From an uncultured Acidobacteriota bacterium (GTDB lineage: Bacteria > Acidobacteriota > UBA6911), in assembly GCA_964481255.1 (NCBI GenBank), contig CAYZTZ010000006.1, forward strand, positions 1-57,652: a stretch of 57,652 nt of DNA. Direction: 5' to 3'. The translations under genes were made by a program, and so were the position numbers. This document shows positions 45,301 through 47,061 of this stretch, piece after piece. The notes under the pieces are model-generated. The model searched no databases, had not been told where the DNA came from, and saw only the letters and a program-made list of their open reading frames with translations. The number at the start of each line of letters is the position of its first letter. Position 1 is the first letter of the stretch.

Positions 45301-47061
45301 TTGCGACTATCCCATCAATTCGGCTCCACCCTGCGGGATGCGCCCGCCAATATCGAAGCGGTCGGCCATCAGTTGCTGGTGCGCGCCGGTTTCATTCGGC
45401 AGCTCGGCCATGGATCGTTTGCATACCTGCCTCCGGCCAGGCGATCCCTGGCGAAGATCGAAAACATCCTGCGCGAGGAGATGAACGCCATCGGCGGACA
45501 GGAGGTGGGACTGCCCTCGGCTCATTCCGCAGAAATCCGGCAATCCCCGGGCCGCCGGCATTCTATCGGGCCGCAGACGGCGCGCTTCAAAGACCGCGCA
45601 GAGCGGGACACGGTGTCGGCGACGGCGTACGAGGAAATCGTGACGCACCTGTGCCGAAGCGAGATCCGTTCCTACCGCCAGTTGCCGCAACTCCTGTATC
45701 AGATCCGGACGAAGTCCCGCGACGACGCGCGTCCGCGAACGGGCCTGATCCATGTCCGCGAGTTCACGACGATGGAGTCCTATAGCCTGGACGCGGACGA
45801 AGCCGGCCTGGACAGGCAATACCGGGCCCACTATCAGGCGTATGCCAATACTTTTCATCGCTGCGGCCTGCCGGTGGTCGCCGCTCTTTCCGACCCGGGC
45901 ATCACGGGAGGCAGCCAGGCGCACGTGTTCCTGTACCTCGCGCCCGTCGGCGAGGATACACTCGTTTCATGCGCGCATTGCGGCTATGCGGCCGACGGCG
46001 GGGCCGCGTCTTTTGCCAAACCGGCGGCTCCGCCTGAAGACCTGAAGCCGGTTGAGAAAGTCGCCACGCCCGGCTGCAAGACCATTGAGGCGCTGGCGAA
46101 ACTGCTCGAGGTGCCGAAGCGCAAGACGGCCAAGGCCGTGTTCATGATGGCCGAACATTGGGGGGCTGAGGGCGGACGCGAGGAGTTTATCTGCGCCGTC
46201 GTCAGGGGCGACATGGAGGTGAACGAGGTCAAGCTGGCGAAAGCTGCGGGAGCCGTCCGGTTGCGTCCGGCCACCGACGAGGAAATCCGCGCCACAGGCG
46301 CCGTTCCGGGCTACGCGTCCCCGATCGGGCTGCAGGGCGTCCGCGCAATCGTTGATGATGCCGTCGTCTCTTCGCCCAATCTCGTCGCGGGAGCCAACGA
46401 GGAAGGGTATCACCTGCTCCACACAAATATCTTCCGGGATTACCGGCCCGCGATGGTCACCGACATCGCGGCCGCGGGCGCCGGAGACGCGTGCCCGCTG
46501 TGCGGGCGGGATCTGCGGGCGTCGCGCGGGGTGGAGACCGCCGGAATCGTCAAGATCGGGACCCGTTATTCCGATGCCGTCGGCGCGACGTACCTCTCCG
46601 CCGACGGGGAGAAGAAACCGATCGTCATGGGGTCCTACGGCATCGGCGTCGGAAGGCTTCTGGCCTGCATCGCCGAGGAGCACCATGACGACAAGGGCTT
46701 GATGTGGCCCGTCACTGTCGCGCCCTACAGCGTGCATCTCGTCTCGCTGGGACAGGAGGAGGCGGCGGATCGGATTTACGGGGCGCTGCGACAGGCGGGC
46801 CTGGAGGTCCTGTATGACGACCGGCAGGAAAGCCCCGGCGTGAAATTCAACGACGCGGACCTGATCGGCGTCCCGATCCGGATAACGGTTTCGGCAAGGT
46901 CTCTGGCGCAAGGGGGCGTCGAGATGAAGCGCCGCGATCAGACGGCGAAGGAGACGGTTTCCGAGGCGTCGCTCGTCGAGCGTCTGCAGTCGGAGCTCCG
47001 GTCCCGGCTGGATGAGATGTCTTCAAGGATTGTAAGGGCCTCCTTCCCGACATGGAAATAA
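45301..47061 (+). CDS. Prolyl-tRNA synthetase paralog with degenerate aminoacylation motifs and intact INS editing and anticodon-binding domains
   Basis: Collinear with bacterial ProRS; TTG start with AAGGGAG RBS; catalytic motifs altered (see findings). Confidence 0.85.
   Translation: [586 protein letters not shown]

Follow-up and report, generated by a model that had tools for sequence, protein, structure and literature searches.

A full-length prolyl-tRNA synthetase-like protein with an eroded catalytic core and preserved editing and anticodon-binding domains: a candidate trans-editing factor from an uncultured Acidobacteriota bacterium

The trans-editing proteins that have been described for the proline/INS superfamily all consist of a single INS-like domain without an anticodon-binding module (reviewed in PMC11295145). 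ProXp-ala reads the acceptor stem, and YbaK relies on a complex with prolyl-tRNA synthetase (ProRS) (PMC3973320, PMC11295145). By itself, the INS domain of ProRS does not discriminate among tRNAs, and it relies on the recognition of the anticodon (G35/G36) by the anticodon-binding domain (ABD) of ProRS (PMC3973320), so that an editing protein derived from ProRS would need the ABD as well as a core joining both domains. Here, a ProRS-like gene located at positions 45301-47061 (+ strand) of a 57,652-nucleotide stretch of DNA from an uncultured Acidobacteriota bacterium (assembly GCA_964481255.1, contig CAYZTZ010000006.1) is analyzed. This whole stretch is termed the window, and the protein encoded by the gene is termed the window protein. 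The active site of the window protein is eroded, all known INS signature residues are retained, selection differs from domain to domain, and the gene has persisted in two lineages. On balance, these sequence data favor a ProRS-derived pseudo-synthetase, a full-length three-domain paralog that would not activate proline and would be kept for tRNA(Pro)-directed editing in trans. No described ProRS of the editing-only kind is found in the literature searched, which is not proof of absence.

The closest analogue of the proposed editing protein is crenarchaeal ThrRS-ed, a paralog of threonyl-tRNA synthetase (ThrRS) that does not aminoacylate tRNA, keeps an editing domain and an ABD, and clears mischarged tRNA in trans on behalf of a distinct catalytic enzyme, ThrRS-cat (PMC3592468, PMC11295145). 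The likeness of the window protein to it is one of sequence and selection pattern only. ThrRS-ed is a member of the ThrRS family with a DTD-like or N2 editing fold instead of INS, is archaeal, and is experimentally proven, whereas the ProRS-like gene is known from its sequence. ProXp-ala and YbaK share with the window protein a homologous editing fold with matching Lys, His and GXXXP, and the substrate of ProXp-ala is the one presumed here, Ala-tRNA(Pro). However, they are single-domain proteins without an ABD, whereas the window protein keeps the full three-domain frame of ProRS. Canonical bacterial P-type ProRS, as represented by the Enterococcus faecalis enzyme (2J3L) and Escherichia coli ProS, resembles the window protein in length, domain order, and canonical INS and ABD, but 41 near-invariant core residues, including proline and metal contacts, are replaced in the window protein, and the site constraint of the core is gone.

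Two other duplicated synthetases are comparable. Anabaena ThrRS T1 and T2 form a duplicated pair, in which a non-aminoacylating subunit proofreads in trans in heterodimers (PMC4787780). However, T1 is a competent enzyme that is reversibly inactivated at low zinc, whereas the probable loss in the window protein would be genetic and permanent. Streptomyces ProRSx is the other described paralog that arose by duplication of a bacterial ProRS (PMC9437257). ProRSx keeps catalysis, is changed in tRNA recognition and has a dedicated tRNA(ProA), whereas the window gene is apparently the opposite, with catalysis lost and a canonical ABD. No tRNA(Pro) gene is located near the ProRS-like gene, and the only tRNA gene in the window, for tRNA-Leu(CAA), is 8 kb away. 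In Bacillus thuringiensis, active P-type and E-type ProRSs coexist (PMC11229370), and it is plausible that the retirement of one ProRS began from such coexistence.

The reading frame of the ProRS-like gene begins with TTG at 45301, which is the start codon supported by homology, and continues for 586 codons without interruption to the stop codon that ends at 47061. The initial annotation had described such a frame, collinear with ProRS and preceded by a ribosome-binding site, and this description is borne out, the site being GGGAG at 45289-45293 (+), 7 nucleotides 5' of the start codon. According to Pfam, NCBIfam and alignments with homologs, the protein consists of an eroded N-terminal catalytic core with motif 1, the TXE loop, motif 2 and the proline-binding loop (residues 1-225; 45301-45975), a preserved INS editing domain (residues 226-404; 45976-46512; Pfam tRNA_edit, 90.7 bits), a partly eroded C-terminal catalytic core with the EVGxIF strand and motif 3 (residues 405-470; 46513-46710), a preserved ABD (residues 471-565; 46711-46995; Pfam HGTP_anticodon, 73.5 bits), and a variable C-terminal tail (residues 566-586; 46996-47061 with the stop codon), which is weakly conserved across all homologs. 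All of these segments are on the + strand. In Pfam coordinates, tRNA-synt_2b (69 bits, residues 96-461) is split by tRNA_edit (256-375) and followed by HGTP_anticodon (485-564). The score for the NCBIfam ProRS model NF006625 is 591.9 bits, narrowly over its cutoff of 558 bits, and that for TIGR00409 (bacterial-type ProRS) is 489.3 against a cutoff of 306.7. In contrast, the score for TIGR00011 (YbaK) is 21.7 against a cutoff of 153, and a three-domain protein of 586 residues does not fit the single-domain INS trans-editors. The window protein aligns end to end with the ProRS structures of E. faecalis (2J3L), Staphylococcus aureus and Pseudomonas aeruginosa. Its nearest homologs are proteins of 583 residues with 72-73% identity, the motifs of which are fully canonical.

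The window protein was aligned with its 119 best hits, one of which, P0024 (see below), was left out of the canonical set of 118. Columns conserved in at least 97% of the canonical hits are regarded as near-invariant, and there are 286 such columns. The window protein is mismatched at 48 of them, whereas any canonical sequence is mismatched at no more than 7. Most of these mismatches (41 of 48) are located in the catalytic core, with 36 of 146 columns changed in its N-terminal part and 5 of 41 in its C-terminal part, as compared with 7 of 68 in INS and 0 of 31 in the ABD. In 39 of the 48 cases, the residue is one nucleotide from the consensus residue. Thus, the initial annotation was correct in stating that the erosion is domain-specific and proceeds mostly by one-nucleotide changes, and every motif replacement that it listed is present.

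When the window protein is compared with its closest canonical homologs, AEIWQATGRW is altered, the TXE loop is now SATAYEE, GLIRVREFTMKD is replaced, AHEY is changed to AHVF, and VEVGNIFKLG is altered; the GSYGIGxGRLL stretch is canonical. The changes in the N-terminal core include W80R, M108T, T109A, H110Y, R151H, M157T, K158M, V199P, M201I, M202T and E209V, and those in the C-terminal core are V413T, G414A, N415G, F417V, L419I and S450V. The generic class II motif 2 consensus permits R151H and D159E. Three of the eight residues of the proline-binding loop are changed (DVGMMGGS to DPGITGGS). The protein retains E111, F155, E412, G449, the motif 2 arginine (R140; R140 in E. coli) and the motif 3 arginine (R452; R450 in E. 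coli).

In the structure of Mycobacterium tuberculosis ProRS with Pro-AMP (PMC13629369), Thr111 and Glu113 touch the amino group of proline, Arg142 interacts with the alpha-phosphate as well as with the carbonyl of proline, adenine is contacted by Glu144, Phe157 and Arg462, and the ribose is contacted by Glu422, Gly424 and Gly459. The metal ion is contacted by His425, by Glu422 and by water molecules that Glu211 holds. The proline-binding loop consists of residues 200-207, and the pocket is lined by Met159 and Phe427. These contacts were mapped onto the window protein by motif register (M. tuberculosis numbering minus 2 in the N-terminal part and minus 10 in the C-terminal part) and by alignment with the E. 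coli protein. The contacts mapped in this way are changed by T109A (proline amino group), E209V (metal waters), G414A, N415G, M157T and F417V. As judged from this mapping, direct contacts with the ligand and the metal are lost through T109A and E209V. The window protein is likely to have lost proline activation.

In E. coli ProRS, editing is defined by the residues T257, I263, L266, K279, D350 and H369 and by the GXXXP loop. This signature is intact both in the window protein and in P0024. The window protein has K278 (K279 in E. coli), H371 (H369 in E. coli), L265, I262, T256 and D352, and its GXXXP loop, also present in P0024, is GYASP (G337-P341). The best-preserved domain is the ABD, none of the 31 near-invariant columns of which is changed in either protein.

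The gene is found in assemblies other than that of the window. Two Joint Genome Institute (JGI) contigs from two other samples, L001 and L002, match the window over 13.4 and 3.5 kb, at 99.85% and 99.9% identity respectively, and both carry the ProRS-like reading frame. The sole difference within the gene among the three assemblies is at nucleotide 46529, where G is changed to T in L001 and L002. This change is non-synonymous and gives G410V at an invariant core residue in RGVEVG. The initial annotation had considered that the substitutions might be sequencing errors, and a sequencing or assembly error is ruled out by the agreement of three assemblies save for one single-nucleotide polymorphism.

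A diverged ortholog, P0024, is encoded on a 6.5-kb Logan contig (L083) and is 74% identical to the window protein in amino acid sequence. The gene order is the same in the two contigs, with the ProRS-like gene followed by genes for TauE (85% amino acid identity) and a sigma-54 activator (96%) and by a Nitro_FeMo-Co gene. P0024 is mismatched at 60 of the 286 near-invariant columns, and 9 more are lost in an in-frame deletion of 15 residues (45 nucleotides) directly before the TXE loop, which is the only internal insertion or deletion between the orthologs. Its pocket is changed by R140C (motif 2 arginine), M157T, E209V, N415R, F417A, G449D and R452G (motif 3 arginine), and its proline-binding loop is DPGMWVGS. 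It is close to certain, as judged from these replacements, that P0024 has lost proline activation. The C-terminal tails of the two proteins differ at 76% of positions.

The two proteins have derived states in common, namely W80R, H110Y, R151H, M157T, K158M, V199P, E209V and the change of NRQ at 232-234 to DGG. This result indicates that the two lineages diverged after the loss of the canonical active site, and thus that the present condition has been maintained and is not a passing stage of conversion. At most positions of the pocket, the residues of the two orthologs are not the same, indicating that no new ligand pocket is under conservation. The reading frame is intact in four assemblies from two lineages. 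When the 120 best homologs are screened for similarly degenerate members at the 286 invariant columns, as the initial annotation had envisaged, only P0024 shows the degenerate pattern. The cluster members of the degenerate gene are strain variants, and the degenerate pair forms a clade nested inside the canonical 583-residue clade.

In the codon alignment of the window gene and its L083 ortholog, the synonymous divergence (dS) is 0.67 (NG86) to 0.92 (maximum likelihood), and the ratio of nonsynonymous to synonymous divergence (dN/dS, or omega) is estimated by four methods at 0.16-0.24 (bootstrap confidence interval, 0.18-0.29). This ratio is 0.18-0.26 for the core, 0.11-0.17 for INS and 0.085-0.18 for the ABD. 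It is 0.09-0.16 for the neighboring TauE gene and 0.03-0.05 for the sigma-54 activator gene, both of which have a dS similar to that of the ProRS-like gene. The initial annotation had predicted a ratio well below 1 for INS and the ABD and about 1 for the core. The first part of this prediction holds, with signature residues kept and omega at ~0.09-0.18, but the second does not. Because the ratio for the core is about 0.18-0.26 and not about 1, the core is apparently retained as a fold.

The core of the degenerate pair nevertheless evolves in an unusual manner. The omega of the N-terminal core is 0.25, as compared with 0.02-0.10 in canonical ProRS pairs, and the core is always the slowest domain in 10 canonical pairs. 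The ratio of dN in the core to that in INS plus the ABD is 1.96 in the degenerate pair, but 0.17-0.65 in these 10 pairs. Likewise, the ratio of amino acid divergence is 1.76, whereas 1125 canonical pairs with comparable divergence in INS plus the ABD have a mean ratio of 0.43 and a maximum of 0.84. The INS and ABD rates of the degenerate pair fall within the canonical range, indicating that these domains are under purifying selection of canonical strength. The orthologs differ at 30% of the formerly invariant columns of the core, about as often as at its variable columns (33%), whereas the corresponding values are 6% and 25% for INS and 0% and 25% for the ABD. When the changes are polarised by canonical sister sequences, 18 lineage-specific changes are assigned to the core of the window protein and 41 to that of P0024, whereas the corresponding numbers are 6 and 8 for INS, and 4 and 6 for the ABD. 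These patterns indicate, at the level of sequence, that the constraint on the catalytic sites of the core is gone, but that constraint on its fold is kept.

The low dN/dS in every domain, with a confidence interval that excludes 1, makes it very improbable that the gene is an early-decay pseudogene whose frame is open by chance, which was the alternative named in the initial annotation. Decay could explain why many of the invariant catalytic residues have disappeared, in most cases through a change of one nucleotide, why the hidden Markov model (HMM) score is barely above the cutoff and why erosion proceeds independently in each lineage. However, both lineages have stayed open across a dS of ~0.67, over which ~12 premature stops are expected per lineage in a neutral simulation and none of 2000 replicates stays open. 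In addition, the only internal deletion is in frame, the start codon and ribosome-binding site are conserved, and the invariant columns of INS and the ABD are hardly changed. A plain pseudogene is rejected on dN/dS, on the open frames in two lineages and on the in-frame deletion. The related proposal that a synthetase has been caught converting into another protein is correct in that the gene is not a plain pseudogene, but is inexact, because the state has persisted over a dS of ~0.67 and the loss predates the split of the lineages. It is also improbable, if less so, that the protein is a working ProRS whose active site has been remodelled, either as the sole ProRS of the cell or as an isozyme with altered amino acid specificity or inhibitor resistance. 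The window protein passes the NCBIfam ProRS equivalog cutoffs and keeps R140, F155, E111, E412 and R452, and two active isozymes are known in B. thuringiensis (PMC11229370), but the syntenic ortholog is under the same selection despite R140C, R452G, the loss of G449 and the deletion of 15 core residues. Former invariant catalytic sites evolve at the pace of variable sites, the pocket residues differ between the orthologs, the strain variant G410V hits another invariant site, and direct contacts are removed by T109A and E209V.

The selection data fit equally well a functional, non-aminoacylating protein with a role other than editing, such as a tRNA(Pro)-binding regulator, a sensor, a chaperone, or a non-catalytic partner that modulates the active ProRS as part of a heterodimer. 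The preservation of the ABD at all 31 near-invariant columns agrees with such a role, as do the dimeric nature of class II synthetases and the documented heterodimers of the duplicated Anabaena ThrRSs T1 and T2 (PMC4787780). This role is nevertheless rather unlikely, given that the residues of the hydrolytic INS site are all kept in both lineages and that the invariant INS columns are constrained as in working ProRS, which is needless for a pure binder. The neighboring genes (TauE, sigma-54 activator and redox genes) suggest no regulatory partner.

An editing pseudo-synthetase is therefore preferred, and it would act as follows. The ABD would dock tRNA(Pro) through G35/G36, the decayed core would serve as a structural, probably dimerising, scaffold that holds INS and the ABD in the right geometry, and INS would hydrolyse mischarged Ala-tRNA(Pro) in trans. 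This Ala-tRNA(Pro) would be the product of another, active ProRS, the gene for which would lie outside the window. Of these steps, we infer the loss of aminoacylation in the window protein, its deacylase activity, its action in trans and the second ProRS. Several points weigh against this interpretation. Both class II arginines, F155, E111 and E412 are kept, so that the window protein may have residual or altered adenylation. A core omega of ~0.2, well under 1, fits a scaffold role, but would fit some other function of the core as well. No other ProRS is found in the window, to which this search was confined. The known sample consists of two lineages and near-identical strains, all metagenomic. 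An extra editor would also have no evident benefit if the main ProRS of the host carries its own INS.

The sequence upstream of the ProRS-like gene is GGGAGATTCATT-TTG, and both the TTG start and the GGAG are kept in L083, the sole diverged ortholog. The block GGTGGAAGT.CCGA.GCCC.ATGGCTTACAATC upstream of the gene is also conserved in L083. A candidate weak sigma-70-like promoter (TGGAAG, an 18-nucleotide spacer and TACAAT) is tentatively read from the sequence at 45219-45248 (+). It matches the consensus at 8 of 12 positions, which is under the threshold of the promoter scan. A sigma-54 promoter 5' of the gene is rejected, because the GG-N10-GC match is not kept in L083. Neither a T-box nor any other leader RNA is found for the gene, and the sole nearby Rfam match is on the opposite strand. 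This match, to the nhaA-I riboswitch (Li+/Na+ class) at 45074-45128 (-), has a score of 49.7 bits as compared with a gathering score of 37 (E = 7e-7) and, relative to the ProRS-like gene, is oriented divergently. A sigma-70 promoter match at 11 of 12 positions (45199-45171, -) precedes the riboswitch match, and a terminator-like hairpin (45038-45017, -) follows it. After this hairpin, only a reading frame for a membrane peptide of 69 residues (44473-44682, -) is found, and no cation transporter. All of these elements are conserved in the same order in L083, and the first hairpin has paired changes between the two sequences.

Genes for Mfd, SurA, FtsH, TilS, FolP, CdaA/YbbR, HemB/HemL, IlvC, an HdrA-like protein and FlpD are located in the window, a chromosomal fragment from a diderm anaerobe. 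The taxonomic signals of the two neighbors of the ProRS-like gene conflict. The named homologs of TauE (47259-48248) are from Thermodesulfobacteriota/Deltaproteobacteria (66-68%), and those of the sigma-54 activator (48351-49673) are from 'Acidobacteria' (83-86%). In relatives with an 86-87% identical activator, the side with the Nitro_FeMo-Co, VKOR and C_GCAxxG genes is kept, and the other side has no counterpart of TauE or the ProRS-like gene. In two of the contigs compared, L092 and L093, synteny ends exactly at the 3' end of the activator gene, 48351; no counterpart of TauE, of the ProRS-like gene, of the riboswitch spacer or of the genes further on is present there. The genes for TauE homologs with 68-71% identity show no synteny with the window. 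Neither an empty site nor an in-situ canonical ancestor of the ProRS-like gene is found among relatives with a similar activator or TauE, and the ProRS-like segment has no convincing insertion scars and no flanking repeats. The tRNA-Leu(CAA) gene (37134-37221, +) is tied to this segment by neither an integrase nor a repeat. Beside the activator, a redox/sulfur-looking cluster at 49898-56589 encodes a Nitro_FeMo-Co protein, a VKOR fusion, a C_GCAxxG_C_C protein, an HdrA-like flavoprotein with 4Fe-4S domains and FlpD/MvhD, and some of this cluster accompanies the activator gene in relatives. Elsewhere in the window, the listed reading frame of 364 residues at 39879-40973 (-) is Fpg/MutM; its real start is an internal methionine at 40736 (MPELPEVE...), and the long N-terminal extension is spurious.

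The named nearest relatives of the clade of the degenerate genes are Thermoflexales/Anaerolineae. The contigs of the closest canonical clade show no synteny with metagenome-assembled genomes of Thermoflexales/Anaerolineae, and have a weak affinity to host-like diderm contigs through a small protein (81%, L084) and a DUF169 protein (61%, L088/L097). The gene may have been transferred from Chloroflexota, or may derive from the native proS of the lineage, as a duplicate or a relic. The canonical sister proteins P0005, P0009, P0007, P0004 and P0010 are encoded in unrelated gene contexts. A small gene just 3' of that for P0005 (L089, 3842-4183) is 81% identical to one on the 1.59-Mb diderm contig L084 (1731-2234), where it precedes Nramp and no ProRS is present at that spot, and the order on the P0007 contig is ProRS, two small reading frames and Nramp. 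These arrangements indicate that canonical sister ProRSs are also located in variable contexts. Beside the gene for P0010, a reading frame of 413 residues (L091, 12276-13517) combines Pfam regions of extracytoplasmic function (ECF) sigma factors with a phenylalanyl-tRNA synthetase-type class II core (tRNA-synt_2d). A leucyl-tRNA synthetase-like gene of 760 residues (L091, 17948-20230) lies 6 kb beyond it, forming an odd synthetase-related cluster.

The ProRS-like gene passes the HMM cutoffs for 'proline--tRNA ligase' and is named prolyl-tRNA synthetase in JGI, and caution is therefore needed in annotation. If this gene is counted as the ProRS of a metagenome-assembled genome, the real one could be hidden or completeness could be inflated. 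As a more tentative proposal from the sequence data, the window protein could be the first three-domain editor of the INS superfamily, a bacterial 'ProRS-ed', in which a retired ProRS would act as an anticodon-guided Ala-tRNA(Pro) deacylase and may pair with a charging ProRS that lacks INS (E-type or truncated). If so, it would provide a natural test of the published dependence of INS on the ABD for the selection of tRNA(Pro). It would also represent a second, independent route by which charging and proofreading are split between two proteins, and 'ProRS-ed' would be a natural intermediate for the birth of trans-editing factors from synthetases.

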